32,909 bases of DNA from Candidatus Cloacimonadota bacterium. GTDB lineage: Bacteria > Cloacimonadota > Cloacimonadia > Cloacimonadales > Cloacimonadaceae. Position numbers and translations under genes: made by a program. Shown piece by piece: positions 6,017-32,909 of this stretch; the stretch's first letter is position 1, and every line of letters begins with the position of its first letter. The notes under the pieces were generated by a model. It ran no database searches and was not told the origin of the DNA. It worked only from the letters and a program-made list of their open reading frames with translations. Location: positions 1 to 32,909 of the forward strand of contig JALNWR010000001.1 in the NCBI GenBank assembly GCA_023230795.1. Reading direction: 5' to 3'.

Positions 6017-6887
6017 TTTGCACTATCTCCCTGCACTTTTCTATCTCTTCTTTGATGATCAGTATATCGGGGAAAGTCTTGCTATTGGAGAATTTAGAGC
6101 CCAGAGTATTCGCCTCGCGCTGCATCTCTTGGCTGATGAAATTCAGGGTCTTCCCGATATCATCTTGTTTGGGTCGGTTCAAGGTGTCCAAAAAAGTGCT
6201 GATATGTGATTCCAGGCGACTCATCTCTTCCTGTATATCGTACTTATCAATATATATAGCAAGCTCTTGCACTATACGCTGCTCCATATTTTCCAGCTTG
6301 TAAGTGTTCACTATCTCGTGGCTGCGCTTCATCATATTGTTAAAGAGCTCTTCTTTGAAGGGATGGATTTGTTTACTGATGCGCTTGATAGCAGGCAGAA
6401 TCTGGTGCATGGAATTCATCAGAACCTCTTTGATATCCACGGCTTCCTTATACATAGAGCTTTGCAGGTTGTTCAAGGCTTCGCTTAAGGTTTCCTGCAA
6501 AATCTGCAGCATATCAGGGTCTTCATCCAGCTGATTTACGCTTTGGATCACACCCGGTTCTTCCAGGATATACTCCAAAGGGGGATCGCCCTTGATACCC
6601 AGTACTTTTTGGGCTTGCAAGATGATTTCATGGTATTTTCGCAATTTAGACTCGTTTAAGCGCACTTTAGGCTCTCGCAGGTCATTTGTATTGACCCTGA
6701 TCTCGATAGTGCCACGGCTGACGTATTTTGAAAGCTCTTTGCGGAGGGTGTGCTCAAAAAAGCTCAATTCACGAGGAACATAGGTTTTTAGATCCAGATA
6801 GCGGCCGTTCACACTTTTTATTTCAATGTCACATTCGATATTGCTTTGTGTTTTATGGCTTTTCCCAAAGCCGGTCATGCTTTTCAT
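6006..6887 (-). CDS. yicC: YicC-family stress-induced protein / endoribonuclease
   Basis: 293 aa. N-terminal MKSMTGFGKS and C-terminal DUF1732-type motif EMQREANTLGSK. Confidence 0.85.
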   Translation of the reverse strand: MKSMTGFGKSHKTQSNIECDIEIKSVNGRYLDLKTYVPRELSFFEHTLRKELSKYVSRGTIEIRVNTNDLREPKVRLNESKLRKYHEIILQAQKVLGIKGDPPLEYILEEPGVIQSVNQLDEDPDMLQILQETLSEALNNLQSSMYKEAVDIKEVLMNSMHQILPAIKRISKQIHPFKEELFNNMMKRSHEIVNTYKLENMEQRIVQELAIYIDKYDIQEEMSRLESHISTFLDTLNRPKQDDIGKTLNFISQEMQREANTLGSKFSNSKTFPDILIIKEEIEKCREIVQNVA

Positions 6888-9037: not shown

Positions 9038-10965
9038 TTTATCCACTTTGCATATCCTATAGATATTCCATCGTTGCATACCATAAAATTCCAGCAGTCA
9101 TATCTGTCCAGCAATTGCTCCATTACCAATGCTGCCATGTGTATGGAAGACAGTTCGAATTCACTGTTCATCAGGTACTTATATTCTTTCGTGTCCTCGC
9201 TTTCAAGCGCGGATTTAAATTCTACTATTTCGCTGTGACCGATAACAAGCTCTGTGCTGCTTAGAATCTGTCGGTAATTCATCTTCTTCAGAACTCTGGC
9301 CAGCACAGTAGCTGTAAGTCCCACTGCGATGATATTGACGTTTTGCATATCGGGTAGATCCGCAAAGTCCTGGCGCACTTTTAGGATAGCAGAATTACCT
9401 GCCGCTTCTTCCCGCAAAAGGCTTTGCAGACCAAAATTCAGGGAAATGCCCAGAATCTTTTCTTTTGCACCCAACCAGGCGATTTCGGTGCTGGCTCCTC
9501 CAATGTCTATTACGACGTTGGTTTTCCCCTGCTGCATCCAAGGCAGAGCCGCCTGCCAGGCATAATTCATCTCGGTTTTTGCGCTGATAACCTTGGTTTT
9601 GTAATGATATTCTTTTTTGATGCGATTCAGCAGCTCAGAGGCGTTTTTGGCCTGCCTGTTCACACCGGTGGCAATGAGATACTTTTCTGAATGTATACAT
9701 TGATCTCTGTTTAAAATTTCTGCGATGGCAAAAAATGCTCGCACCAGGCTTCGTGCCGAGAGCAAGCCATCTGATATATCTTTTCCCAGATAGGTACTGC
9801 ACCAGGTGCGATAGATCAGCTCTTCCCTGCTCTTATTGTAAAGCAGATAATTCATATTGTTTGAGCCCAGATCGCACACGCTGATCAGCCTGTCTTCGGG
9901 GTACTTTATTTTGAGATATTCGGATAGCATCTTTCCTGCCAGCTCGCTATTGGATGTTTCCTGCTCATAATCCCCATGCGGGACTTTGGCAAAAAGCTCT
10001 CTGATCTTCTGAATATCCTGCGGAAAGTCTTCCACTATCACCGCCGGAGGATAGTCCTTTATCCCTTCCAATAAAACTTCTTCTTCGGGGTAGTTTTTGC
10101 GGGGAACACAAATCATGGATTTGCCCAGCGCAAGTATCTCCGAGAATGTGCTATAACCCGGCTTGCAGATAATGAGGTCGGCTGTATAGATCAGACTCAA
10201 AAAGTCTTCATCCGGTGAAACCCAGATCAGATTGCCGATATCAGTGGCCTGATAGGGAGTCATTACCACCCCGTCCCAAGCTTTACAGATCTCAGATACA
10301 GGCAGGTCTATAGTTCCTTCTCCACCAAAGATCATCAGCAAAATAGGCTCGTCATCGGCGATGTCATATTCATGACGTATGTCTTTGATCACATTCTTTT
10401 CCCGGCTCAGGAGTCCCCCATGCGCCGGGTTCTTAAATCCTGGTACGCTATCTATGCTGCCCAGATCGAGCAGATAGCTTTTGTCCATCCTGCGATACAA
10501 GCTCCAGATGGTATTTATCACCGGAAGCATCTCCTCATCTTCCGCGAAGATTGCTTTGTAGATAAAAGCCCAATCAAAATTTGAAACTCCGAAGACCGGA
10601 ACCCCGGCATAACCGCAAGCTTCTACTATAAAGAAGGGGATATCGGCTACTACCAGATCGATATTCTCCTGGCGCAGGAATTCCACTTCCCGTGCTACTA
10701 TCTCTTCTCTCTGGCTAAAAAGCCGCAGCAATTCAAGCTTGGTCGCAGGCAAATCTGTAACCAGATTCTCTGCATGCACCACTCCCCCATCGATGCAGAC
10801 TTCCCGATATTGATAGTCTTCATCCTTCAGCTCTTGAAAGAGAAACTGCGGACGGTCTGTACACAGATATACATAGATGCCAAAGCGGATGAAACTATCG
10901 GCCAGAGCGGCTATTCGAGTGGCATGGCCAAAGCCGTGACCGGATGCGTAAAGCGCTATCTTCAT
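9034..10965 (-). CDS. Fusion protein: N-terminal GT-B-like domain (GHGFGHATR type) plus C-terminal Ppx/GppA-family ASKHA domain
   Basis: 643 aa. Residues ~1-340 carry SGHGFGHATR, NFDWAFIY, CKPGYSTFSEIL and VPRKNYPEEE. Residues ~355-643 carry the Ppx/GppA motifs CDLGSNNMNYLL, ATGVNRQAKNA, VISAKTEMNYAW and VVIDIGGASTEIA. Confidence 0.7.
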   Translation of the reverse strand: MKIALYASGHGFGHATRIAALADSFIRFGIYVYLCTDRPQFLFQELKDEDYQYREVCIDGGVVHAENLVTDLPATKLELLRLFSQREEIVAREVEFLRQENIDLVVADIPFFIVEACGYAGVPVFGVSNFDWAFIYKAIFAEDEEMLPVINTIWSLYRRMDKSYLLDLGSIDSVPGFKNPAHGGLLSREKNVIKDIRHEYDIADDEPILLMIFGGEGTIDLPVSEICKAWDGVVMTPYQATDIGNLIWVSPDEDFLSLIYTADLIICKPGYSTFSEILALGKSMICVPRKNYPEEEVLLEGIKDYPPAVIVEDFPQDIQKIRELFAKVPHGDYEQETSNSELAGKMLSEYLKIKYPEDRLISVCDLGSNNMNYLLYNKSREELIYRTWCSTYLGKDISDGLLSARSLVRAFFAIAEILNRDQCIHSEKYLIATGVNRQAKNASELLNRIKKEYHYKTKVISAKTEMNYAWQAALPWMQQGKTNVVIDIGGASTEIAWLGAKEKILGISLNFGLQSLLREEAAGNSAILKVRQDFADLPDMQNVNIIAVGLTATVLARVLKKMNYRQILSSTELVIGHSEIVEFKSALESEDTKEYKYLMNSEFELSSIHMAALVMEQLLDRYDCWNFMVCNDGISIGYAKWIK

Positions 10966-19230: not shown

Positions 19231-19788
19231 TTAATCCTCCTGGGTATTCATTTTGTTGCCATTTGAGACCGCCACTCGCACCGGACGTATCACCTTGTCG
19301 TGCATGGTGTATCCATTTTGAATAATGGCGGCCACAATATTTTCTTCATAATCACTGGGAATGTGGGCCAAAGCTTCGTGATATTCTGGGTCAAATTCCC
19401 GTCCCAAAGCTTCGATCTTCTTGATTCCCTCTTTTTCAAGGGCTGTAGCCAATTGCTTTTCGATCAATATCATCCCCTCTATAAAGGGGGTTTTCAGGTC
19501 TTCGGCATTGGCTTGCAGCAAAGCGCGCTCAAAATTGTCTAAGACGTCACAGATATGCAGCGCCAATTCCTTGGTAGCGTGGCGAATCCAATCCGCCTTC
19601 TCGGCATTTGTTCTTTTGCGGTAATTCTCAAATTCCGCCATGGTTCGCAAATACCTATCTTTAAAGTCTATTATCTCCACAGCAGCCTCAGGCTTTTCTT
19701 CTGCCTCTGGTTCTATCTTAGTCTTTGCCTTCACTTGCTCTTCTTTCTGCGACTGCATTTTCTTATCCTTTTGCTGTTTTTTACTCAT
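19231..19788 (-). CDS. grpE: Nucleotide exchange factor GrpE
   Basis: The likely start MSKKQQKDKK at 19788 overlaps the hrcA stop by 8 nt. The GrpE core is RTMAEFENYRKR...LDNFERAL...GYTMHDKVIRPVRVAV. The track ORF extends to 19851. Confidence 0.92.
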   Translation of the reverse strand: MSKKQQKDKKMQSQKEEQVKAKTKIEPEAEEKPEAAVEIIDFKDRYLRTMAEFENYRKRTNAEKADWIRHATKELALHICDVLDNFERALLQANAEDLKTPFIEGMILIEKQLATALEKEGIKKIEALGREFDPEYHEALAHIPSDYEENIVAAIIQNGYTMHDKVIRPVRVAVSNGNKMNTQED

Positions 19789-20839
19789 TTTTACTCCACT
19801 TGGGCACGACCATTCCCTTCCTTGTAGTCTGTGTGATCGTATTTGTAACATCCCGGATCAGAGGTATCAGCTTTCGATACTCGGCCCGGAGCGGGGTGAG
19901 CACACCCAAATAACCGGGTATGCCAAAAACTTCATATTTACCGTATATTAAGGCAAAATCATGCCATTTGGGATCGATAAAATCCTCTCCCATCAATATG
20001 GTTACATCACCTTCATCGTTTCTGCGCATCGAATTCAGCAGTACATCCTGCCGCTGTATCATATTCATGAAGTTCAGGATCGCTTCCTTGGAATCAAATT
20101 CAGGCTGCTCCAAAAACTTGATGCTGCCGTCATAGTGAATAAAGAAATCGCTGATCTCAATAAAAGCCTTGTGCAGTTCTGACAGAAAGTTACTTAAGAG
20201 ATCACTTTCATTTTCTCTGCGCTCTCTCATCTCTACCAATACTTTATTCGATATCTCATATACCCTCTGCCCCACCAATTCATCGTTAAGATAACGCACC
20301 AGCTTTTTCAGCTGAACTTCATTGATCTCATAGTCACACTTCATGATCACGGTCTTGTCCAAACCGCTATCCAGACTCATCAGAAACAGCAGCTTTTGCT
20401 CTTCTATGGCAAATACTTCCAAGCGGGAAAGATATCCGCTGGATACCTCCGGCTCGGCCACAAAAGATAACTGGTCTGTTTCATGAGCCAGCATCTGCAT
20501 GATGTAGTGCAGGGCCCGCGGCGTATCTTTGTAGTTTCGCACCAATAGCTCCCGCAGGGTGTCCATACGCTCATACCGAACGTTTTTGTGCTCCGGTGCT
20601 ATGTGTTCCAGATATCTGCGGTAGCCGGATATGGTGGGAATCCGCCCCGCTGAAGTATGAGGCTGGGAGATCAAATTCTGCTTCTCCAGCTTCAGTAAAT
20701 CCAGCCTCAAAGTGGCTGAGGATATATCCGTCATATACTTTTCGTTCAAAATCCGCGAGGATACCGGCTCACAATTCAGGATATACTCATCCACCAATGC
20801 TCCCAGAGTGTGGAACAATCGTGCTATGTTCTTCTTCAT
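19781..20839 (-). CDS. hrcA: Heat-inducible transcription repressor HrcA
   Basis: The likely start is MKKNIARLF at 20839. The upstream extension in the track would read through the CIRCE operator. Signature ISQPHTSAGRIPT is present. Confidence 0.9.
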   Translation of the reverse strand: MKKNIARLFHTLGALVDEYILNCEPVSSRILNEKYMTDISSATLRLDLLKLEKQNLISQPHTSAGRIPTISGYRRYLEHIAPEHKNVRYERMDTLRELLVRNYKDTPRALHYIMQMLAHETDQLSFVAEPEVSSGYLSRLEVFAIEEQKLLFLMSLDSGLDKTVIMKCDYEINEVQLKKLVRYLNDELVGQRVYEISNKVLVEMRERRENESDLLSNFLSELHKAFIEISDFFIHYDGSIKFLEQPEFDSKEAILNFMNMIQRQDVLLNSMRRNDEGDVTILMGEDFIDPKWHDFALIYGKYEVFGIPGYLGVLTPLRAEYRKLIPLIRDVTNTITQTTRKGMVVPKWSKNE

Positions 20840-20862: not shown

Positions 20863-20889
20863 TTAGCAGTCCACCTTGTAAACTGCTAA
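20863..20889 (-). promoter_or_regulatory. CIRCE-like HrcA operator (variant core)
   Basis: TTAGCAGTC-N9-AACTGCTAA has 8/9 complementary arms and a 9-nt spacer, against the canonical TTAGCACTC-N9-GAGTGCTAA. It sits between the -10 box and the hrcA ATG. Confidence 0.75.
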
Positions 20890-20945: not shown

Positions 20946-21007
20946 GTTTTGGCGATAAGAGCATAGGCAAATTTGAATGTAAAGAGTCACCCCAAACTGC
21001 AAATGGG

Positions 21008-21087
21008 CGTCGGTGTGACAAGTGGGGATAAGGCTTTGATTGGTGGCAAGTTATAGCGGACTGGATTTAGACTGTGTCACAGCGACG
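21008..21087. repeat. Left-end pair of the 13-nt motif TGTCACA(C/G)CGACG in opposite orientations
   Basis: 21008-21020 reads CGTCGGTGTGACA (reverse orientation). 21075-21087 reads TGTCACAGCGACG (forward), and is identical 13/13 to 22368-22380. Confidence 0.7.
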
Positions 21088-21090
21088 TTT

Positions 21091-21110
21091 GGACTTTTTT
21101 GGACTTTTTT
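21091..21110 (+). repeat. Tandem 10-bp repeat GGACTTTTTT x2 (helically phased T6 tracts)
   Basis: Two exact adjacent copies lie 3 nt after the forward end motif. Related TTTGGACT and GGACTGG words occur at 21058-21064 and 21140-21149. Confidence 0.6.
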
Positions 21111-21186
21111 GATCACCGTTTCTGCAAATATGCGCTGATTTTGGACTGGTTTCGGATATTCCTGTATTACAACAGTTTATCGCATT

Positions 21187-21915
21187 TCAGCAAAGCTGCA
21201 GGTGGACAGCGAGTGTGCCGATCAGAAAAACGTCACTGGTCTGATCTCCGTCCAATATAAGAGAATTAAAGTCTGAATTGAGAGGGTCGAGTACCAGTGC
21301 AGCCCTTTTGTGATCTAACTTCACCTGCTTAAGAGTGATGCCTCCATCCACCTGCACAGCACAGATCTTACCATTGGCAGTATCCCAGTCTATCGTCTTG
21401 TAGATCAGGACTATATCTGCATTCTTGATCTGCGGAGCCATGCTATCGCCATTAACCAAGAAGGCCATGTAATTGGATGCACCTCTGGGAATGTAACTAT
21501 CTGGTATTTCAATCTGTTTACGGGAATCACGATCATCGACTGCTTCCATAGGGGGTCCGGCGGAAATTTCCGCCAAGATCGGGAAAACTGCAGAGCGAAT
21601 GTAAGTATCTCCAAATTCATCAATTAATAGCTGTCTACCACCCACGATCTGATATCGCTGGTTACGTCTGATGGCAGTGTCTTGCTCCCAGGGACCCGGG
21701 ATCATCATCGGACCTTCACCCTTCAAAACCCAGTTGATGTTCACCTTTTCGTCTGCCATTTTGAGGAGAAAATCGGGGTCGGGAAGACGCTCGTTGGTCT
21801 TGTATCTGATCACTGAGTTCTTTGAAACACTAAATTTTTCCGCAAACTCCCACTGCTTCAAGTTCATTGATTTCATAAGGGTTTGGATGCGATCGCCGAT
21901 CGTCATAATATTCAT
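21187..21915 (-). CDS. Phage repressor: XRE-type HTH plus S24 (LexA/CI-like) autopeptidase domain
   Basis: 242 aa. N-terminal HTH is LKQWEFAEKFSVSKNSVIRYKTNER. The cleavage-site-like region is AEISAGPPMEA. Ser and Lys dyad motifs are LVNGDSMAP and ITLKQVKL. It is transcribed divergently from the transposition genes. Confidence 0.85.
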   Translation of the reverse strand: MNIMTIGDRIQTLMKSMNLKQWEFAEKFSVSKNSVIRYKTNERLPDPDFLLKMADEKVNINWVLKGEGPMMIPGPWEQDTAIRRNQRYQIVGGRQLLIDEFGDTYIRSAVFPILAEISAGPPMEAVDDRDSRKQIEIPDSYIPRGASNYMAFLVNGDSMAPQIKNADIVLIYKTIDWDTANGKICAVQVDGGITLKQVKLDHKRAALVLDPLNSDFNSLILDGDQTSDVFLIGTLAVHLQLC

Positions 21916-21943
21916 TCTATCCCCCTTAGGGCGTAATTTCTCA

Positions 21944-21972
21944 TTGACAATAACCGTATGGGTATCATTATG
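21944..21972 (+). promoter_or_regulatory. Candidate rightward early promoter
   Basis: TTGACA (21944-21949), then a 16-17 nt spacer, then CATTAT/ATTATG (21966-21972). It lies 29 nt from the repressor start codon, on the opposite strand. Confidence 0.3.
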
Positions 21973-22201
21973 TATCTGTGCACAACGCTAAATAACCACG
22001 GCGTTATGTCAAGACTAAAAATTCATAGTGTGATTTGGCGGCGGATTTTTCCGCCAGTGTTCAGAAAAAAAACCAAGTTCCTGTTTTCGCAGAAAGGACT
22101 TCCCAAGTTGTTGCTATTGCGTGCAGTAGCACCCATATACAAAATGAGGGAGGCGCTTATGAAAGCGACTACTTACGAGCATGGCAAGAAGGTGGAGAAA
22201 A

Positions 22202-22380
22202 TGTCACAGTGTGACAAAAAACTCGCGGTGACCAGTGTCACACCGAAGCCCAAACGGGAATCACAGCAGTTAAAGCTAATAACGAGAACGGTTTTAAGGC
22301 ATGTCACACCGAGCGTCGGTGTGACAAACAGGAAAAGGCTCGGTGTGACACGCAGACCGGACAGATTTGTCACAGCGACG
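22202..22380. repeat. Cluster of 7 copies or half-copies of the TGTCACA(C/G)CGA motif (candidate operator/enhancer)
   Basis: 22202-22216 is TGTCACA-G-TGTGACA. 22236-22248 is TGTCACACCGAAG. 22302-22326 is TGTCACACCGA-GCG-TCGGTGTGACA, with perfect 11-bp inverted arms. 22338-22350 is GCTCGGTGTGACA. 22368-22380 is TGTCACAGCGACG. A further copy lies at 22635-22648 (TGTCACACCGAGCG). Confidence 0.75.
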
Positions 22381-22416
22381 GTTAATCAGAGTGGAATCTA
22401 TATAGCGAGACTTAGA

Positions 22417-22761
22417 ATGAGCAATGAGATGATTAAGGCAATCTGGCTCACCATTGAAAGGGTGGCTGAACTCAAGAGCTGTTCGAACCGGACAGTCTGG
22501 AGATACATAACCGGGCAGCGAATGCTAACTCACAAGCAGTTGGTCAGGTCCGGGCAGCGCAATGTAAGCAAAACCTTCGTGCTGACTAACCCGGAGATCT
22601 ACGATATGGAGATCAATGACTGTGAGGCACGCAGTGTCACACCGAGCGAGTATCTGGAAGCGCAGATCGAAGTGGATGGCAGGATAATTACCGGAGCCCT
22701 GATCTATGGGTATGCTTCGGTGGATCAAGTGCAATTGGGAGGATCGGATGAGCTTCTATAA
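22417..22761 (+). CDS. Small HTH DNA-binding protein in the Ner/early-regulator position; start uncertain
   Basis: MSNEMIKAIWLTIERVAELKSCSNRTVWRYITG is an HTH. The gene lies directly upstream of the transposase and overlaps it by 14 nt. The same frame is open back to an ATG at 22159, which has a strong GAGGGAGG Shine-Dalgarno sequence, and to 21958. Confidence 0.45.
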   Translation: MSNEMIKAIWLTIERVAELKSCSNRTVWRYITGQRMLTHKQLVRSGQRNVSKTFVLTNPEIYDMEINDCEARSVTPSEYLEAQIEVDGRIITGALIYGYASVDQVQLGGSDELL

Positions 22762-24808
22762 AGCAAGCAGTTCGGAATACGCAGAATTCTATCATAGCTA
22801 CGTGGTAACAGGCAGCAAGCAGACCATCACTCCCGTGCAGTTCACGATCACCAGCCCGGAGGGTACTGTAATTGATAAGAGTTCTGATAATGATCATGAG
22901 AGCGGGAGCAGTATCGATAAACCTGTTCCAGTCTGCGGACCACGCTATCTGGAGCGCAATCCAGATGACTATATCGATCTTACTCCTCCTGAGTATATCC
23001 CCTATAAGTATGAAAATGAAGCAAAGCTCTATGGTCAGTTCTGCTCGACTGTCCTTTACCGCCTGGAGCAATGCAGTTCCCGGACTGAAGAGTGGAAACA
23101 GATAACAGAGGATTACAACCACAGGACACTCATCCCTGATTTGTATAAAGCTGTCGGGAGCCGTAGTGAACGCTCTCTAAGAGTCTGGCTGGAACGTTAT
23201 CTGGCAAACAATCATGATATGTACTCACTGCTGCATAAGGGCAAGAATCAGAGCAGGGGACGCAAAGTCACCTTTATAGAACAGAACTATCTACTCAATC
23301 TGCTGCTGAATCCCAACAACATCAAAATCTCCACTGCGGTGGGAAGTTTGAAGGATGCAGCCCGCAGGGATCTCTTGGTATCGCCCTCAAGTGAACCAAC
23401 GCTACGCAGATGGAGCAAGGACTGGGAAGCCAATAACCAGGCGATCTGGGTACAAGCAAGAAAGGGCAGCAAAGCGGTAGCGGAGACCATCGTCAAGACG
23501 ATCATCCGTGATGCCAGTCTCCTGAATGTAGGAGATGTCTGGGTAGCAGATGGTCATAACCTCGCCTTCGATATTATGAATCCTAAGACCGGCAAAGCCC
23601 AACGCATGACTATGATCATGGTCTTCGACTGGGCAAGCAGATATCCGGTAGGTGCCTCACTTGCCTTTACCGAGGACAGCCATCATATCCAGGTAGCCTT
23701 CAGGAATGGCTTCCTCAACTGGGGTGCCTTACCAGAAACAGTATATCTGGATAACGGCAAGGCTTTCAAGAGCAAGCTGTTCCATGAGGGCTGGGAAGAT
23801 CATGATCTGGAGCAGGAACTCTGTGGTATCTTCCCCCGACTGGGGATCAAGGCGGTGTTCGCCAAGAGCTATAATGCCAAAGCAAAAGTGATTGAGCGGT
23901 TCTTTAGGACCTTCCAGGATCAGTTTGAACGGTTCATCTCTTCCTTCCGGGGCTCATCCATAGCAGATAAACCCTCGACCTTGATGCGCAACGAAAAGTG
24001 GGCAAAGAAGCTGTTCGAGGCGCACCCTCCCACAATTGAGGAGACGATGCAGATGATCGCATACTACATAAGACACATCTATGGTGAGCATCCCCACTCC
24101 GGGTTAAACGGCAAGACTCCCTGGCAGGTATTCAGTTCATCAAAGCTACCCGAAGATCGCATCATCGAAGCTGGCAAGCTCAACAACATGCTGCTCAGCG
24201 CAGAGCGTAAACGCATCCGTAATAATGGCATCCGGCTCGATAAGCTGCTCTACTGGAATGTTGAACTGATGAACCACATCGGCAAAGACGTGATCATCCG
24301 TTACGATCTGGGAGATGCCAGATGGATACTGGTCTATGATACCAATGACAAATACCTCTGCCAGGCAGAGTTGCGCCGTACCCAGCATCCGATGGTGCAA
24401 CTGGCTGATGATGAAGCCACCTCATTTAAGGAACTCAAGAAAGAATACACCGAGATCAAAAAGCTGCAGAGGCGCACTGAACAACGCACCAGGATGGTGG
24501 TGAAGCAAGCGCAAATAGCAGTCGACAGGTTAACTCCTCCGCTTAAGTCCAGAATCCTTGAAGCCAATCCCATCTTCAAGCAGCCTGCCATGATCGAAGC
24601 TCCCAAACCCAGCAGAGATGAAGCCATCCATGCGATGGAGAAGCAGATCGTTAAGCATCTGCCTGAACTTGATCCGATCAATACTGAGATCAGCAACCCA
24701 ATAGCAATCACCCCGGAACACTCGATTGTGAATCCGGCAGCTCAAACACCCAATACCGCATCCGATAAGAGCTTTCAGGATATGCTCAAGCGGGTGGGGA
24801 TCAGATAA
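22748..24808 (+). CDS. DDE transposase, MuA-like (rve catalytic core plus Mu-transposase C-terminal barrel)
   Basis: The likely start MSFYKA at 22748 is preceded by GGGAGGA. The DDE triad candidates are VWVADGHNLAFDI, VYLDNGKAFKS and AKVIERFFRTF. The downstream segment IRLDKLLYWNVELMNHIGKDVIIRYDLGDARWILVYD resembles the Mu transposase domain III barrel. Confidence 0.88.
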   Translation: MSFYKASSSEYAEFYHSYVVTGSKQTITPVQFTITSPEGTVIDKSSDNDHESGSSIDKPVPVCGPRYLERNPDDYIDLTPPEYIPYKYENEAKLYGQFCSTVLYRLEQCSSRTEEWKQITEDYNHRTLIPDLYKAVGSRSERSLRVWLERYLANNHDMYSLLHKGKNQSRGRKVTFIEQNYLLNLLLNPNNIKISTAVGSLKDAARRDLLVSPSSEPTLRRWSKDWEANNQAIWVQARKGSKAVAETIVKTIIRDASLLNVGDVWVADGHNLAFDIMNPKTGKAQRMTMIMVFDWASRYPVGASLAFTEDSHHIQVAFRNGFLNWGALPETVYLDNGKAFKSKLFHEGWEDHDLEQELCGIFPRLGIKAVFAKSYNAKAKVIERFFRTFQDQFERFISSFRGSSIADKPSTLMRNEKWAKKLFEAHPPTIEETMQMIAYYIRHIYGEHPHSGLNGKTPWQVFSSSKLPEDRIIEAGKLNNMLLSAERKRIRNNGIRLDKLLYWNVELMNHIGKDVIIRYDLGDARWILVYDTNDKYLCQAELRRTQHPMVQLADDEATSFKELKKEYTEIKKLQRRTEQRTRMVVKQAQIAVDRLTPPLKSRILEANPIFKQPAMIEAPKPSRDEAIHAMEKQIVKHLPELDPINTEISNPIAITPEHSIVNPAAQTPNTASDKSFQDMLKRVGIR

Positions 24809-24820
24809 AGGAGGAGAACC

Positions 24821-25537
24821 GTGAAACAGAACAAACTGGTAGCAATCCGAAATGTACTGGAAGCCGATGCCTGCATCCGCTTCCTGCTTAACAGACCGAA
24901 GATGGAGATGGTGGGACTGGGCATGCTGTATGGCTGTCCCGGACTCGGCAAGAGCACCTATGCGCAAAGGATGGCGTTTCAGCGAGGCTACATTTACCTG
25001 CGGCTGGAATCCACCACTACCCCCAAAGCCTTTATGATGGCATTGTTAACCGCACTATACACAAAGTTCAGGATGGGTCCGGTTATTCCCTGCGGCACTG
25101 CCAATAATCTACTCAAGCTTATCCTGCGTACCCTGGAAGATCATAAGGACACGGTAATCGTAATTGATGAGATCGATTACGCCTTTGGGCATGAGAAACT
25201 CTTAGGTGCGATCCGGGACATCGTTGACGAGACTTTGACGGTGATCATCCTGGTGGGAATGCAGAATGCCAGGGATAGGCTCTCACAGGTCAATGCCCAC
25301 TACTTTGACCGATGCAATTACTTTTATGAGTTCCAATATATATCCAGACAGGATATCGCCATGGTAGCTCGGGAAGTAATGGATGTGGAAGTCACAGAAG
25401 AGGTTATCGAGAAGATCGATTTCAATAACGGTGGCAACATGCGTAAAGCCATGAAGGTGATGTACATCATCGAGACAGAGCAAATGAAGCAACCCGATAT
25501 CGAAATATCCGCAATTGATTTGAGTACAGCCTTATGA
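24821..25537 (+). CDS. AAA+ ATPase, MuB/TniB-like transposition partner
   Basis: GTG start after AGGAGGAG. Walker A is YGCPGLGKST and Walker B is VIVIDEIDY. It lies immediately downstream of the transposase. Confidence 0.78.
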   Translation: MKQNKLVAIRNVLEADACIRFLLNRPKMEMVGLGMLYGCPGLGKSTYAQRMAFQRGYIYLRLESTTTPKAFMMALLTALYTKFRMGPVIPCGTANNLLKLILRTLEDHKDTVIVIDEIDYAFGHEKLLGAIRDIVDETLTVIILVGMQNARDRLSQVNAHYFDRCNYFYEFQYISRQDIAMVAREVMDVEVTEEVIEKIDFNNGGNMRKAMKVMYIIETEQMKQPDIEISAIDLSTAL

Positions 25538-27374: not shown

Positions 27375-27626
27375 ATGGCACCTATGAATACCAATACAGC
27401 AGAGGTAATAGAAACGATGAGTATCTTTAATGACGACCGCAACTACCGCACGGATGAGATAGCAGATATCCTCCGGGTTGACCGTTCCAGTGTTTACCGC
27501 TGGATACGGGTCATTGGCGACCCTCTGCCTGCCTTCCGCACCAAAGAGAACGGACAGTTACGCTGTGCCGGGAAAGACTTAAACGAATACCTGCTCAAGC
27601 ATAAGGTTCGCCCGGAATATGAGTAA
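27375..27626 (+). CDS. Excisionase-family (HTH_17-type) DNA-binding protein; possible middle or late regulator
   Basis: 83 aa with AGGAGA upstream. Contains the HTH TDEIADILRVDRSSVYRWIR followed by LPAFR...G.LRC...LNEYL. Confidence 0.6.
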   Translation: MAPMNTNTAEVIETMSIFNDDRNYRTDEIADILRVDRSSVYRWIRVIGDPLPAFRTKENGQLRCAGKDLNEYLLKHKVRPEYE

Positions 27627-28068
27627 TGCAATAGAGTTCCGTATCAAGCGGGGCAACTGCAAAGATGCTTATCTGAATGGTAAGACCGATCCACTCGAGC
27701 TGGCGGTGATCTTCGGTGTTTCCGATATCACCGTCCGCAAGTGGATCAAGAGTGGTAAGTGGGATGAGCTATTCAAGGAAGAGCGGAAGCTTGACCATGA
27801 GATCAGCTTAGCCCGTAAGAAGGCACTCATCCAAGCATTACGTGAGTATGCTAAGAATCCTGCAGACACAGCATTACAGAGCCTCGTAAGCTTAATCAAA
27901 CAGAACCAGAAAGATAGTGAACCTGCCAAGGAGCTGAACGACTATATCGTGCGCTTCCTGGATCAGGTTACCGACTTTATGATCGAGAAAGGGCATGAGA
28001 CTATGCTCAAACAGTTCCAGGGTATAGTTCTTGACCTTGCCGAGTACTTAAGAGTTAGAAATGGATAA
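27619..28068 (+). CDS. Putative terminase small subunit (HTH-containing)
   Basis: 149 aa with N-terminal HTH LELAVIFGVSDITVRKWIKSGKW. It lies immediately upstream of TerL and overlaps the previous gene by 8 nt. The call rests on position and architecture only. Confidence 0.48.
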   Translation: MSNAIEFRIKRGNCKDAYLNGKTDPLELAVIFGVSDITVRKWIKSGKWDELFKEERKLDHEISLARKKALIQALREYAKNPADTALQSLVSLIKQNQKDSEPAKELNDYIVRFLDQVTDFMIEKGHETMLKQFQGIVLDLAEYLRVRNG

Positions 28069-28088
28069 TTATACAGCCACGGACATGG

Positions 28089-29738
28089 TTGCCTCCAAAC
28101 AAGCCTACCCTCCAACCCAAACCTGCCAAGCGGAGCCGTCGCCTCCGGCTCCGCACTTTCATGGTTACCCTCCAAGTCCCGGTTATGTCTAAGAAGTTCA
28201 TTCAGCGACATAACAAGGCATTGGCGGAGATCGCTTCAAAAACGATCTCCGTCTTGCCTTTTATATACGATAATCCTGAAGCCAAGACTGAGAGGATAAG
28301 ACGAACCACAGCCGAGGGTTGGGATGCCTTCTCGTTCTTCTGTCATACCTATTTCCCGCATATCTTCCTACTACCATTTTGCCCAGCACATGAGACTATG
28401 TTCGATGTGACTGATAAGGGCTCAGGCATCATCGGAATCACAGGTTTTCGTGGGCTGGGCAAAACGGTACTAATGGGAGTGGTCTATCCCATCTGGAGGA
28501 TAATCCGAGGTGAACGCTACGTGATCCATACTGCTGCTGACGTAGATCTGGCACAGGAGCGCACAGCGTTTACTTTACATGAACTGCAGAACAATAAGCG
28601 ACTCACTATGGACTATCCTGAGCTGCAGCCGGTTGATGCCTTTGATCTGGACTTCTATCTCAAGAATAAAGCCAGGATCAGAGCCAGAAGTATCAAGCAG
28701 TCCCATAGAGGTACTATCAATCCCAAGACTGCCAAGCGGCCCGGACTGATCGTATGCGATGATATCGACAAAGAAGAGAACATGGGCAACCAGTCCATCG
28801 GCAAGAGACGCATGGAGAAGATCACCCAAGAGCTTGCCGGAGCTCTCTCACCGGAGGGCAATGGCAAGATCGTCTGGCTCGGTAACCTGGTACATCCCAA
28901 TTACTCCATCTGCCAGTTTCAGGAGCTCATATTAGGCGAAATGCGAGCAGATAATCCAGAATTAGACGTTACCTACCAGATTGTATTAAAGACGCACCAA
29001 AAGGCGATATTGCGCTTCTCTCTTGAAGATATGCAGGGCAAGTCCATCTGGGAGGAGCAATACCCTACTGCCACTCTGCCAAACCTGCGAGCCAAGTTTG
29101 GGCATACCGGTTATCAGAGGGAGATGCTCGGACAGTCGGTAATCGAAGGTAACATCTTCAAGAACCACTGGTTCACCAAGTATAGAACACTACCTGAACC
29201 ATCCCAGATGAAGCGTGTCTGGCTCTATGCCGATCCTGCTTGGGGAGAGAAGGGCTGCTATAAAGCTGTTATCTCTATTGGCTATGATGGTAACAGATTC
29301 TACGTGCTTCATGTCTGGATACGTCAGACTGAGAATACCAAGTTCTTCAGATACTATTATGATGCCTATCAGGAGTTAGATAGAATCTACCGAGTCAAAG
29401 CCAGAGCTGCCTGTGAAACCACCTACGGACAAGCTCGCATCCTTGCTGACTTCGACAGGTGGGCTACTGATAACCATCTGCCACCGATATCTCACAGAAT
29501 CAAGCGGATCGATAACAAGGACAACAAGAACCTGCGTATAGAACGCACTGAAACCATCATCGAAACTGCCAAGATTCTGTTTCCGGAGGGACAGGACACA
29601 CCAACTCTCATAAGTCAGTTCCTCACCTATCCTGATGGCTATATCGATGGCTGTGATGCCTTGGCTGGATGTCTGGAGCGTTTCTCTGAATATGATATAG
29701 GCAGGAACAGAGTGAAAGTCCGGAGATTCTCCTTCTAA
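28089..29738 (+). CDS. Terminase large subunit
   Basis: Walker A-like GITGFRGLGKT and Walker B LIVCDDID. The C-terminal RNaseH-fold nuclease region is VWLYADPAWGEKGCYKAVISIGYDG...VLHVW. The track start is TTG at 28089; in-frame ATGs lie at 28161 and 28185, and the real start is uncertain. Confidence 0.84.
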   Translation: MPPNKPTLQPKPAKRSRRLRLRTFMVTLQVPVMSKKFIQRHNKALAEIASKTISVLPFIYDNPEAKTERIRRTTAEGWDAFSFFCHTYFPHIFLLPFCPAHETMFDVTDKGSGIIGITGFRGLGKTVLMGVVYPIWRIIRGERYVIHTAADVDLAQERTAFTLHELQNNKRLTMDYPELQPVDAFDLDFYLKNKARIRARSIKQSHRGTINPKTAKRPGLIVCDDIDKEENMGNQSIGKRRMEKITQELAGALSPEGNGKIVWLGNLVHPNYSICQFQELILGEMRADNPELDVTYQIVLKTHQKAILRFSLEDMQGKSIWEEQYPTATLPNLRAKFGHTGYQREMLGQSVIEGNIFKNHWFTKYRTLPEPSQMKRVWLYADPAWGEKGCYKAVISIGYDGNRFYVLHVWIRQTENTKFFRYYYDAYQELDRIYRVKARAACETTYGQARILADFDRWATDNHLPPISHRIKRIDNKDNKNLRIERTETIIETAKILFPEGQDTPTLISQFLTYPDGYIDGCDALAGCLERFSEYDIGRNRVKVRRFSF

Positions 29739-30613
29739 TGAACTACTATGATCAGCTAATGCTGGAGTACTACCGGGTCCTGAATAATTCTTGGAAAACT
29801 GAGATCAGAGATGCAACCCGGCTTGCCATCCAGATGCTAAGTGACATGCCGAGAGCCGAGAAGATCAACAAGGACTCCATAGATAAGCTTATGGGCATCA
29901 TTAATACCCAGTTGGGAGATGACTTCGCAGCACTGGTCAATGAGCCCACCAAAGCGTTAATAGACCGCTGTGTGCGGTTTGGACTCAAGGACACCCAAGT
30001 ACAAGCTCCAACCAAGACCAGCATCGGGCTCTGGGGCATTGAAGACCAGCATCTCTCATCCACCATTCAGAAGCAGCAGTTGTTCTGGATCGGGAATCAC
30101 TTTGAAGCTGATGTCAGGCAGAACTTCGCAGACACCCTCTCCAAGGCAATAGAGCAGGGCTATACCAAGGAGATGCTTGCCGATACCCTCAAAGACCAGT
30201 TCAATGATCTCGCCAACCGCTCATCACACTACTGGCAAGGACTGGCAGAGCATACAGCCCTGAGAATACGAGAGTTCGGAAGGTTACAGGGTTACAAGAA
30301 AGCCAAAGCCAGATATTACAAGCTCGTAGTGATCCTGGATGATCGCACTAGTGACATATGCCGGGCATTGGCTGCCCAAGATAGGGTCTATCCGCTAAAC
30401 GATGCAATCGAAGTAATGGACAATCTCATGGCTCTGAATACGAAATCAAACAGCCTGGATGATGCCCGGGATTACATCAAAGCTCTGGCACCTTGGATCA
30501 AAGACGATCAGATCGAATATGACTCGGAGATGAACCCGGTAGGTGTCTCCGGAGCGCATACTCCGTTTCCGCCGTTTCATTGGAAGTGCAGGACGACAAG
30601 CTCTATTCTGTAA
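29738..30613 (+). CDS. Phage head morphogenesis protein, MuF / SPP1 gp7 family
   Basis: 291 aa. ILDDRTSDICRALAAQDRVYPL and the C-terminal FPPFHWKCRTT correspond to the Phage_Mu_F D.RT..C and PP.H.NCRC motifs, with the second Cys absent. The start overlaps the TerL stop (TAATG). Confidence 0.78.
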   Translation: MNYYDQLMLEYYRVLNNSWKTEIRDATRLAIQMLSDMPRAEKINKDSIDKLMGIINTQLGDDFAALVNEPTKALIDRCVRFGLKDTQVQAPTKTSIGLWGIEDQHLSSTIQKQQLFWIGNHFEADVRQNFADTLSKAIEQGYTKEMLADTLKDQFNDLANRSSHYWQGLAEHTALRIREFGRLQGYKKAKARYYKLVVILDDRTSDICRALAAQDRVYPLNDAIEVMDNLMALNTKSNSLDDARDYIKALAPWIKDDQIEYDSEMNPVGVSGAHTPFPPFHWKCRTTSSIL

Positions 30614-30618
30614 AAGAA

Positions 30619-30649
30619 ATTGAGCCCGATTTATCAGATCGGGCTCAAT
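30619..30649 (-). terminator. Terminator hairpin between convergent genes (functional orientation: minus strand)
   Basis: Perfect 12-bp stem ATTGAGCCCGAT/ATCGGGCTCAAT with a 7-nt loop. On the minus strand it is followed by TTCTTTTA. No T-run follows it on the + strand. Confidence 0.62.
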
Positions 30650-30664
30650 ATGGCAATGTGATCC

Positions 30665-32909
30665 CTATTTCATTAGCATTATCTTCCTGGTTGGTATGGC
30701 TCCGGATGCTTGCATTTTCACGAAGTATATTCCAGAGCTTACGTCACGCTGGTGCTTGTCTTTGCCATCCCACACTACTTTGTGGAATCCACGTAGCATT
30801 TCAGAATCGCATAGATCTTTTACCTTTTGGCCTTTCACGTTGTAAATGCCAACCTTAACCAAGCCATCCTTAGGTATGCTGAACGCGATCGTCGTGCTGG
30901 GATTGAAGGGATTTGGGTAGTTTGAACTGATGAGGGCTTTATTGGGAATCGGAATCATATCTTCTTCAGTTCCATTCAGCAATTCATCAAGCAGATCCCA
31001 GTGCTCCTGGTGTTTTGCTTTGAACACATTCCTATCGGGATAGATGTATTGAGTGTATTTGGTGCTGATGGGCTTCTTATTTTCGCTCATGGCAGCCAAT
31101 TGCAGCACAATCTCCAGATTCATCACAGCGTGGAGAGAATCAACGGGACTTTCTGCATTAAGGATTCTCAGCTCAAGCAAGTCAATAGCTGTTTGAAAGG
31201 CTTCGGCTTGCAGACAGTTTTTAATCAGATAATCCTGCAAGTACTTGGTAAGAATGGGATTATCAGTATCGTATTGAGCAATCTTGGCCAATAAGTAGGA
31301 TTCTGTTCCGGTGAGTGTAACGCCAGCTTGATCAGCAGTACGGTAATAGGCATCAAGGGCGTCATACAACAATTCAGCTTCGCTGATCTCATTCTCATTC
31401 AGAATCGTTTTATACGTATCATTGGCGGTCAGGTAATTCCCGGCTAGTTCCGCACTCATAGCCTGAGCCATCCTTTCGTTATTTTCCAAGTAAACGTTTG
31501 GCGAAGGATCGTAATAATTGCAGTAGGCGTAATCTGAAGGTGTGCCAGGACTGCTTATTTTTGCAACACTGTCCTCAAACCAATTGTAACTGGCATTAAT
31601 GGGACTTTTAAATAGACCACCAACGTCCCAGTTTGCATCGAAATGAAAATCCAAACTTAGATTGAAGGGACCAGGATTCTTATGGTAGAAATCATTATGG
31701 CCTCCATACAGCTGGACTCGGGCTGTGTACGAAGACGTATCTTGGAACTTCAGATTTTCATATTCTGCCTGATACAGGTTTTTAGCTGCATTTCCCATAT
31801 TCAATATCGAGCCGGCATGATTCAGGATTCCTGTATCTGTGTAGAATTTGTTATAGGCAACCCGTTGGTTTGAACCTCTGCTTTCAATCCCAATATCTCC
31901 CAAACTGAAGGTAGAATCGAAGATTCCTCCAGATTGGGCAGTTGATAGCTCTGTGCGGATACCAATATCGCAACTTGTAAAATCGCATTCCACAACCTTG
32001 GGAGAGGTCACTTCAAAATACGCCCCCAAGTCATTCTTAAAGAAAGTACAGTTTCGGATTAAAGGCGAATACTGAAGTCCTATAAAATGCATCCCAGTGC
32101 TGTTCTTGTTGAAGTGGCAGTATCGAATGGTGTCTCCCAAGGCTGGGTTTGATCCATTCGCTAATCCTAACCACAGATCTTCGAATACTACACCATGTAA
32201 GAATAGGTTGGCATAGGGATTATCATAGTACAATCCAATATTATCTGTCCCTGCGCCATAAAAACCCTTGTTGTCGGTTGACGCGGTAATTCTGATACTT
32301 TGGCCTGGTAGTTTGTTTGCAATCGATAATCCAACTCCATTTGTTGGAACATTGAATAGGCAATCGGCAAGCAGCACTTGGGAACCTAGCACCTCATTAT
32401 AGTCAGCCCCAGAGATTGTAGTATTAGTCATAGTCACTATCCCGGCATTTGATATCCGCATTCCTTGCCAAGTTTCACCATCATCTGTTTTCTTAAGGAT
32501 AGTGTTGGTAGCTGTGATACCAGAATCATCCACCAGCAAAATAGAATTATCACCCCAATTACAGGTAGCATTGTTGAATACAATAGCGCTTCCGTCTTCC
32601 ACTATGATCGACACACTATCTGCGATCTCCACGGTACCGCTGATACTCAGAGTTGAGCCACCCTTCACCAATATGGTGGAATGAGCGAAAATCCTAGTTT
32701 CGGTTCCTGGATGAATGGTAACTACTGCACCTTGATCAATGGTGATCGAACCAGATAGATAAGCGATACTTTTCACATCTGCATCACCGGTAACGCTTGC
32801 TGGCAAACTGGAGCACATTTGAAGAAGTTTCCCATCTCCCGCACCCAGGCAAACATTGATATCCTGATCACCAGAAATATAAATATGTTCATCTGCAGAA
32901 TCATAGAGA
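30665..32909 (-). CDS. Large secreted beta-helix-repeat surface protein with T9SS/FlgD-Ig-type C-terminal sorting domain; 5' end beyond the window
   Basis: The track gives 717 aa from an internal Met at 32818. My translation of the same frame upstream (…LYDSADEHIYISGDQDINVCLGAGDGKLLQ-MCSS…) has no stop up to base 32909. The N-terminal region has repetitive G/N/T/I-rich strands typical of parallel beta-helix. The C-terminus is NYPNPFNPSTTIAFSIPKDGLVKVGIYNVKGQKV...SGIYFVKM...RKIMLMK. Confidence 0.75.
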   Translation of the reverse strand, partial: LYDSADEHIYISGDQDINVCLGAGDGKLLQMCSSLPASVTGDADVKSIAYLSGSITIDQGAVVTIHPGTETRIFAHSTILVKGGSTLSISGTVEIADSVSIIVEDGSAIVFNNATCNWGDNSILLVDDSGITATNTILKKTDDGETWQGMRISNAGIVTMTNTTISGADYNEVLGSQVLLADCLFNVPTNGVGLSIANKLPGQSIRITASTDNKGFYGAGTDNIGLYYDNPYANLFLHGVVFEDLWLGLANGSNPALGDTIRYCHFNKNSTGMHFIGLQYSPLIRNCTFFKNDLGAYFEVTSPKVVECDFTSCDIGIRTELSTAQSGGIFDSTFSLGDIGIESRGSNQRVAYNKFYTDTGILNHAGSILNMGNAAKNLYQAEYENLKFQDTSSYTARVQLYGGHNDFYHKNPGPFNLSLDFHFDANWDVGGLFKSPINASYNWFEDSVAKISSPGTPSDYAYCNYYDPSPNVYLENNERMAQAMSAELAGNYLTANDTYKTILNENEISEAELLYDALDAYYRTADQAGVTLTGTESYLLAKIAQYDTDNPILTKYLQDYLIKNCLQAEAFQTAIDLLELRILNAESPVDSLHAVMNLEIVLQLAAMSENKKPISTKYTQYIYPDRNVFKAKHQEHWDLLDELLNGTEEDMIPIPNKALISSNYPNPFNPSTTIAFSIPKDGLVKVGIYNVKGQKVKDLCDSEMLRGFHKVVWDGKDKHQRDVSSGIYFVKMQASGAIPTRKIMLMK

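Follow-up and report, generated by a model that had tools for sequence, protein, structure and literature searches.

The stretch of DNA considered here, hereafter the window, comprises 32,909 nucleotides (nt) of contig JALNWR010000001.1 of a Candidatus Cloacimonadota bacterium (assembly GCA_023230795.1), and from position 20978 onwards it is occupied by a Mu-like transposable prophage, with genes for a MuA-like transposase, a MuB-like protein and an S24 repressor. The subject of this analysis is a short DNA word that is repeated in two clusters in this element, one at its left end and the other, an array, inside its first early gene, an open reading frame (ORF) of 200 codons that we denote ORF200. 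The features on which the argument turns are as follows.

20978..20986, plus strand: left terminus, 5'-TGTAAAGAG, where homology with relatives begins exactly (TATAAAG in most relatives)
20987..21004, plus strand: L1-type terminal repeat TCACCCCAAACTGCAAAT, proposed transposase end-binding site, of the repeat type present at right ends
21008..21020, minus strand: word copy 1, TGTCACACCGACG, core at nt 37 from the left terminus
21075..21087, plus strand: word copy 2, TGTCACAGCGACG, nt 98 from the left terminus
21113..21129, plus strand: L2-type repeat TCACCGTTTCTGCAAAT, nt 136-152 from the terminus
21187..21915, minus strand: CI-like repressor, XRE helix-turn-helix (HTH) plus S24 peptidase (Pfam Peptidase_S24 2.7e-17, HTH_3; PHROG transcriptional repressor)
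21944..22007, plus strand: early promoter-like site TTGACA-16-CATTAT and two palindromes ATAMCC-N4-GGKTAT, from pattern reading
22159..22761, plus strand: ORF200, the first early gene, 200 codons, from homologues and an HTH_17 match
22202..22216, no strand: core palindrome TGTCACAgTGTGACA at the array start, nt 1225-1239 from the left terminus, 7-nt cores only
22236..22248, plus strand: array word TGTCACACCGAAG, from a pattern scan
22302..22326: two array words on opposite strands, 22302-22314 (plus) and 22314-22326 (minus), with one central base in common
22338..22350, minus strand: array word TGTCACACCGAGC, from a pattern scan
22368..22380, plus strand: array word TGTCACAGCGACG, from a pattern scan
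22635..22647, plus strand: isolated word in the 3' part of ORF200, 101 nt 5' of the transposase ATG, kept in relatives with the same word class (class A, below)
22748..24808, plus strand: MuA/TnsB-like DDE transposase (Pfam Mu-transpos_C 7.8e-18, rve; PDB TnsB 1.6e-8; PHROG transposase 4e-87)
24821..25537, plus strand: MuB/TniB-like AAA+ protein (Pfam, PHROG)
27375-27626: p83, a small HTH_17 protein (Pfam HTH_17 1e-9)

Two clusters of one word

The 11-nt form of the word, TGTCACASCGA, has eight exact matches in the window, all of them within 21008-21087 and 22236-22647: 21010-21020 (minus), 21075-21085 (plus), 22236 (plus), 22302 (plus), 22316-22326 (minus), 22340-22350 (minus), 22368 (plus) and 22635 (plus). 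When up to one mismatch is allowed, the sole further match is at 9230-9240; 0.58 matches are expected by chance at this stringency, and none of 100 shuffles got to nine. The 7-nt core, TGTCACA, occurs 11 times against 3.1 expected, with 10 occurrences within 21014-22641 and the remaining one at 6827. Outside this core the word is asymmetric, and it is present in both orientations with irregular spacing. The pair at 22302-22326 forms inverted arms TGTCACACCGA of 11 nt with a spacer of 3 nt, and in place of the core palindrome at 22202-22216 two relatives (L074, L075) have two full words. All copies that had been listed in the original prediction, eight exact words and the core palindrome, are thus present where they had been placed; the 13-mers at 21075-21087 and 22368-22380 indeed match 13/13, and the statement that no full copy lies elsewhere in the window holds, the one-mismatch site being the only match outside the clusters.

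As to the location of the clusters, the first had been assigned to the end of the element, and this is borne out by some 55 related left ends that start at the base equivalent to 20978, with flanking DNA that is unrelated in each, which fits transposition. The second had been assigned to the control region between repressor and transposase, and as an intergenic location this did not hold: the internal cluster lies downstream of the promoter-like site (21944-21971) and inside the ORF at 22159-22761, not in 21916-22158, a stretch free of the word.

Different words at the same positions

The layout was compared across 43 related elements, long and compact forms together. The core of a class-specific word is found at nt 37/38 from the terminus in 43/43 elements and a second word at nt 96-98 in 38/43. 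In the long forms, the window included, the array begins at nt 1233-1236 and extends over nt 1233-1403, whereas in the compact forms it begins at about nt 590-593 (nt 294 in L092) and extends over nt 591-836; the median number of copies is 7, and both orientations are represented. Only eight stray copies were found in 232 kilobases (kb) of other element-body DNA. These 43 homologous elements thus keep the positions of the motif, and a generic dispersed repeat is not seen in the scanned DNA. The word itself differs among the elements:

Class A (window): TGTCACA-CCGA
Class B: TGTCCAA-GTGGT
Class C: TGTCCAA-GTCCA
Classes D/E: TGTCACA-G(A/T)GGTC
Class F: TGTCACA-GTGCT
Class G: TGTCAAA-GTGC

At least five word classes thus occupy identical positions, and the same layout with a different word is seen in relatives at 53-60% transposase identity. 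Furthermore, one metagenome-assembled genome (MAG) can hold several classes, as CAZVXH01 does with A, D and G. Different words at the same positions, together with several classes per MAG, indicate that the reader of the word is encoded by the element and is not a host factor. From these sequence patterns the word is predicted to be a genuine protein-binding site.

A separate repeat that the transposase is likely to recognize

Thirteen right ends were recovered; some belong to elements of classes B, C or D, the others to several contigs of no assigned class, and class A is not represented. In the terminal 400 nt of these right ends, none from class A, there is no word (TGTCMMA) in 13/13. Each of them carries instead 4-8 direct copies of TCAC(C/T)GAAAA(T/C)TGCAA(AT) or a close variant, the first at nt 10-25, and in the alignment the same TCAC-N7/8-TGCAA repeat forms the left terminus in all word classes. 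The window has only two matches to it, at 20987-21004 and 21113-21129, and word copies 1 and 2 fall in the spacer between these L1- and L2-type repeats. The TCAC-N7/8-TGCAA repeat is likely to be the recognition site of the transposase at both ends, independent of class. Given that the word is missing from the 13 right ends whereas the repeat is present at both ends, the word does not appear to be the end-recognition site of the transposase; att sites of the L/R type stand in inverted orientation at both ends, and among the 13 right ends examined, none of them class A, the word shows no such arrangement. Of the Mu logic invoked in the original prediction, the enhancer-like position of the internal cluster stands (nt 1233-1403, compared with about 1 kb in Mu), whereas the role of the word as a transposase end site, given zero words in 13 right ends, none of them class A, is not supported.

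Scans for a mirrored word pair and for a composite of the word with TTTGGAC found left ends only; a scan with the pattern TAAAGAGTCAN{7,9}TNCAA was uninformative, the matches listed being chance ones. Between word copy 2 and the L2-type repeat lies a tandem duplication of TTTGGACNT (21088..21110, plus strand) that is class-independent and conserved across all classes in the alignment, and GGACTGG motifs nearby, at 21140-21150, are likewise kept in all classes. These elements could be a packaging site or a site for a host factor.

ORF200, the gene that holds the array

The array begins 43 nt into ORF200, about 230 nt 3' of the promoter-like site, and occupies approximately the first 75 codons of a gene that was overlooked previously. 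ORF200 has what reads as a strong ribosome-binding site (GGGAGG), and its 78 homologues have been called as proteins of about 200 amino acids, some of them annotated as DNA-binding. The frame is open in all classes, although the array-encoded peptides differ (VTP/GVT, CPSG, CPSP, HCD/TVT); since the peptides differ while the DNA word stays, the conserved feature is the DNA word, the frame being merely kept open. Residues 1-86 are encoded by the array and are predicted to be disordered, and M87, at which some callers place the gene start, is invariant.

In an AlphaFold2 (AF2) model, residues 1-65 are disordered, whereas residues 90-190, with a predicted local distance difference test (pLDDT) score of about 90, form a strand, two helices, a beta-hairpin wing, a helix and a second hairpin. 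Pfam HTH_17 is matched by 37/38 homologues, with the domain within residues 87-190, and the best Foldseek matches of the model, all weak, are the Xis of the mycobacteriophage Pukovnik, BldC and other winged HTH proteins; phmmer and profile searches against PDB sequences gave nothing meaningful. This HTH_17 winged helix is the best candidate for the reader of the word. Its recognition helix reads CS(N/T/K)RTVWRY in elements with the TGTCACA core compared to KS(V/I)KT(I/V)RR(M/L) in those with TGTCCAA, and its wing tip, which reads SG(S/G)YR for class B and SGK(S/T)H for class C, differs again in A, D, E and F. Between L006 (class B) and L013 (class C), DNA identity is 88% for the part that runs from transposase residue ~69 as far as the MuF gene and 70% across left end and repressor, whereas the ORF200 segments defy alignment.

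The leader 5' of ORF200 also contains a conserved hairpin, GGCGGATTTTTCCGCC, at 22043-22058 and a highly conserved block, TTTTCGCAGAAAGGACTTCCCAAGTT, at 22085-22115.

Which protein could read the word?

What the sequences show is the layout with its conservation, the switching of classes, the lack of the word in the right ends recovered and the fold predicted for ORF200; the binder of the word and the effect of its binding are inferred. In the reading that we favour, with a confidence only a little above even, the word serves as the binding site for the winged helix of ORF200 and marks both the L1-L2 spacer and an enhancer-like array, so coupling the architecture of the left end with control of the early region. 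Under this scenario, an element-encoded DNA-binding protein of variable specificity would bind the word at the left-end spacer and at an array of 7-9 copies some 1.2 kb inside; the reader would be the HTH_17 (Xis/MerR-type) winged helix of ORF200, the 5' third of whose gene is the array. Monomers of ORF200 might load on the array and the two left-end words, and the bound protein would then bend and loop the intervening 1.2 kb, such that the left end is organised for transpososome assembly, the array gates early transcription, or both. The transposase, for its part, would recognise TCAC-N7/8-TGCAA at both ends in all classes.

Several facts weigh against the assignment of the word to ORF200. 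Nine compact relatives (L083, L085, L088, L090, L092, L093, L096, L101, L106) have neither the repressor nor the ORF200 winged helix and nevertheless retain both left-end words and an array of 5-9 copies, which means that in these forms the word is read by another protein, such as the transposase, or that the reader comes in trans. In every protein, classes B and C group as sisters, so that the covariation of ORF200 with the word is only partly independent of phylogeny, and the winged helix barely splits B from C (minimum within-class identity 58%, maximum between-class identity 58%). In addition, the best Foldseek E value for the ORF200 model is 0.12, and the variable half of the word is less uniform in the end copies than in the array copies.

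Could the transposase itself be the reader? The word would then belong to a true Mu-type enhancer system and would be read, at the left end and in the array, through an unrecognised N-terminal region, as MuA does via I-alpha. The distance of the array from the left end, about 1.2 kb compared with about 1 kb for the Mu enhancer (PMC3145075), is in line with this possibility, as are the gene content of the compact relatives, which with words and array encode only transposase, MuB, a p230-like protein and cargo, and the class variability of the first ~70-95 transposase residues, which resembles that between Mu and D108. However, this variable N-terminus reads as an acidic, low-complexity sequence, unlike a DNA-binding domain, and is missing from the 575-amino-acid transposases of class B and from the compact forms. 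The HTH-like regions of the transposase are mosaic relative to word class, with 71% identity in the HTH1-like region between L006 (B) and L013 (C) against 65% between L006 and L057 (both B), and 83% against 71%, respectively, in the HTH2-like region. No family match to an I-alpha-type domain was found, Pfam on the N-terminal region and a PDB profile search both being empty, and a single-sequence AF2 model of residues 1-300 (pLDDT 33) was unusable. Finally, the end and enhancer sequences of Mu differ, whereas here the left end and the array have one word and the right end none. The transposase as the reader, a role suggested by the Mu logic of the original prediction, which left the reader of the internal cluster undecided, is not supported inasmuch as its HTH-like regions do not follow word class, and we regard this explanation as unlikely. 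The repressor, which had been described as having no obvious relation to the transposase N-terminus, a view with which we agree, could instead use the words as operators, repressing early transcription and blocking the left end. Its gene lies between the two clusters, its HTH differs among most classes, and in Mu the operators overlap the enhancer (PMC3145075). The word, however, is asymmetric, of mixed orientation and irregularly spaced, and is not a palindromic dimer site at a promoter. Dimeric CI-like repressors are expected to use palindromic operators, and two 16-nt operator-like palindromes are indeed present in the 243-nt divergent promoter region that lacks the word, at 21950-21965, over the promoter-like site, and at 21992-22007, the first being perfect (ATACCCAcaTGGGTAT) in L074 and L060. 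As judged from their sequence, these palindromes are probably the operators of the CI-like repressor, which accordingly has candidate sites separate from the word. Moreover, the repressor HTH does not separate B from C (64% identity between these classes compared to 61-62% within), the recognition helix of L006, a class B element, resembles that of class C more than that of its fellow class B members, classes D and E have one common repressor type, and the compact relatives keep the array without a repressor. That the repressor reads the word is, to our mind, quite improbable.

Among the remaining proteins, p83 belongs to the same HTH_17 family and p230 is always found with transposase and MuB, compact forms included, so either of these, or a host nucleoid protein, could be proposed as the reader; p83, p230 and MuB were nevertheless rejected because their types do not track word class, and a host factor is at odds with the coexistence of several classes in one host genome. 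An explanation of this kind seems to us very improbable. As for the view that the word is no binding site at all and represents a repeat at the coding level, a product of chance or a repeat dispersed in the host, one can cite the internal copies that lie in an ORF, six of them in one codon phase as derived from their coordinates. This view is already refuted, and we accord it next to no credence: copies are present on both strands and in the non-coding DNA of the left end, the encoded peptides vary by class while the DNA word and its positions persist, the 21 kb of host DNA in the window contain no exact copy, and strays are very rare in relatives.

Compact relatives and mini-elements

In the compact forms, either the transposase reads the word or a co-resident phage supplies the reader in trans. 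Besides the left end and the array, these forms contain genes for transposase, MuB and a p230-like protein, followed by defence-like cargo. The array either is part of an ORF of 122 codons or forms an in-frame fusion with the transposase, the latter arrangement being seen in L083, L086, L088 and L096. The cargo includes an AAA ATPase, Nmad3, DUF4268, UDG-like and WD40 proteins. The acidic helix at the N-terminus of the transposase is likewise missing from the compact forms, and its loss jointly with that of the winged helix would fit two interacting parts.

Smaller still are elements of about 310-345 base pairs (bp) that resemble miniature inverted-repeat transposable elements (MITEs), found in L395 (7971-8313 and 9663-10005) and L076 (106-417), with one end of the left type that carries a word and the other of the right type with TCAC..CAA repeats. 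In L082 (5690-5730), a left end is abutted by a right-type end to form the palindrome GACTCTTTATAAAGAGTC; a tandem insertion, a circle junction and a remnant are candidate explanations of this end-to-end junction.

Extent of the element, its neighbours and its cargo

To the left of the prophage lies a host heat-shock operon:

up to 20839, minus strand: host operon hrcA-grpE-dnaK-dnaJ
19781-20839, minus strand: hrcA, host

An inverted repeat, TTAGCAGT-N11-ACTGCTAA at 20863-20889, 5' of hrcA, resembles the controlling inverted repeat of chaperone expression (CIRCE), and the prophage left end (20978) is located about 90 nt beyond it, so that the insertion is just upstream of the control region of the operon. 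The contig L262, from a Joint Genome Institute (JGI) metagenome, represents the same insertion.

Downstream of the MuB-like gene, the order is DUF3164, the small HTH_17 protein, TerS-like, TerL and MuF-like genes, the last three at 27619-30613 with TerL followed directly by the MuF-like gene and no portal gene in between. Proteins of this TerS-TerL-MuF module are 85-96% identical across classes compared to only 40-66% for early genes. Homology with more than 30 relatives ends at the stop codon of the MuF-like gene (30597-30613). This position was considered as the right end of a 9.6-kb element and rejected: neither an inverted repeat nor a target duplication is present, modules located downstream reappear after early regions that belong to different classes, lysozyme and tape-measure genes follow farther along the same contigs, and the true right ends are 34-37 kb from the left ends. 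Specifically, the distance is about 33.6 kb in the contig of L006 and 36.9 kb in that of L017, from which it follows that the window holds the left 11.9 kb of a Mu-like prophage. The element is a phage of about 34-37 kb with terminase, tape-measure and lysozyme genes, and relatives of the latter two share IMG/VR contigs with transposase loci.

Variable cargo occupies the slot that follows the MuF-like gene. In the window (30597-32909) it holds a gene for a large protein sorted by the type IX secretion system (T9SS; 30665-32818, minus strand); exact look-ups of this protein and of the GrpE proteins returned no match. In contig L264, two T9SS-type genes and a group II intron stand past the MuF slot, followed by the phage lysozyme gene, the intron reverse transcriptase being located between cargo and lysozyme. 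In L261-L269, from different samples, an identical MuF protein with a like neighbour (a large minus-strand gene, T9SS-sorted where annotated) is found behind early regions of classes A, C and E/F, which points to recent recombination. The annotation of the prophage is thereby corrected, its true terminal repeats, both ends of the element and the variable cargo slot being defined.

Two further observations concern the surroundings of the relatives, almost all of which, as judged by their transposases, come from Cloacimonadota MAGs and IMG/VR contigs. Nine contigs (L003, L015, L017, L018, L021, L027, L054, L382, L393) end 126-127 nt outside a left or right end, a k-mer signature of assembly that indicates several flanking contexts of the element per sample. 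CRISPR-like arrays (AAGGATTGAAAC x11, AGCATTCCGATG x11) are present upstream of the left ends of L037 and L096, at most 2.7 kb 5' of the transposase.

Comparison with known systems

The phage family described here is widespread in Cloacimonadota of anaerobic digesters; we found no paper on Mu-like phages of this phylum, and the nearest studied transposable phage that we found in the literature is the Bacteroides hankyphage (PMC12135933). The family lends itself, as a natural experiment, to asking how end recognition, enhancer function and immunity are coupled in transposable phages. Dozens of related elements combine one scaffold with swapped DNA words and winged-helix residues, which makes a recognition code testable, and the role of an architectural site specific to the left end can be directly tested in this family.

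Among solved structures, the core of the transposase is closest to TnsB of Tn7 and CRISPR-associated transposons (CASTs), and as in those systems there are multiple direct repeats at the ends, more numerous and closer together at one end. The word studied here is, however, not that repeat, and the element has no TnsA, TniQ or CRISPR parts. The family match of ORF200 to HTH_17 and the best, if weak, fold matches to Pukovnik Xis and BldC invite comparison with the Xis/BldC-type winged helices, which load cooperatively on arrays of closely spaced sites, roughly of this length; here, too, an HTH_17 protein is encoded next to at least three short sites. Those proteins function in site-specific recombination or transcription, whereas the present array is of mixed orientation, lies in a gene and belongs to a DDE transposable phage. 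The position of ORF200 would fit a Ner-type early regulator, but its domain is HTH_17, not Ner, and it has 200 amino acids.

The DNA-binding domain of the Mu repressor and the I-alpha domain have a winged-helix fold, and homology between the N-termini of the Mu transposase and repressor was reportedly noticed by Harshey in 1985 and Mizuuchi in 1986, both listed among the references of PMC3820752. The main differences between Mu and D108 concern the repressor, the early gene that follows it and the transposase gene's 5' end, along with the respective DNA sites; the two phages are reportedly the subject of Mizuuchi et al. (1986). The divergence of L006 and L013 in the same interval is reminiscent of this heteroimmunity, except that there are at least five classes, not two, and the most divergent segment is ORF200 with its embedded array.

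In Mu, the enhancer is located about 1 kb from the left end and is contacted by MuA via a region separate from the one that binds the ends, the repressor operators overlap the enhancer, and HU binds, at the left end only, the stretch that separates L1 from L2, where it bends the DNA (PMC3145075). The likeness to the enhancer consists in short sites of either orientation that cluster internally, in cis with both ends (43 elements), about 1 kb away from the left one and beside the early promoter, in the distinctness of these sites from the end-binding ones, and in a candidate reader that is a winged helix too. The differences are that this candidate is a separate protein of 200 amino acids and not a domain of the transposase, that the lysogenic repressor is CI/LexA-like and unrelated to it, that no overlap of the array with repressor operators, as tentatively identified above, was seen, and that the word is also present in the L1-L2 spacer while the array lies inside the candidate reader's own gene. 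The two end copies of the word fall exactly where HU binds in Mu; HU, however, is a non-specific host protein, whereas here there are two sequence-specific, class-variable sites, which calls for a factor encoded by the element. ORF200 would merge the roles that in Mu belong to HU at the L1-L2 spacer, to the enhancer and to a winged helix of the I-alpha/repressor type. What appears to set this system apart from Mu is the combination of a separate candidate reader, an array in that reader's own gene, a word in the left-end spacer and at least five specificity classes. One may tentatively go further, to a view that we regard as possible, though somewhat less likely than not: the enhancer-binding role of Mu would have been split off to a stand-alone winged-helix protein whose gene bears its own array of sites in a translated, disordered 5' third and whose sites also replace HU in the left-end spacer, in at least five interchangeable classes, with the compact and ~340-bp MITE-like elements perhaps dependent on it in trans.

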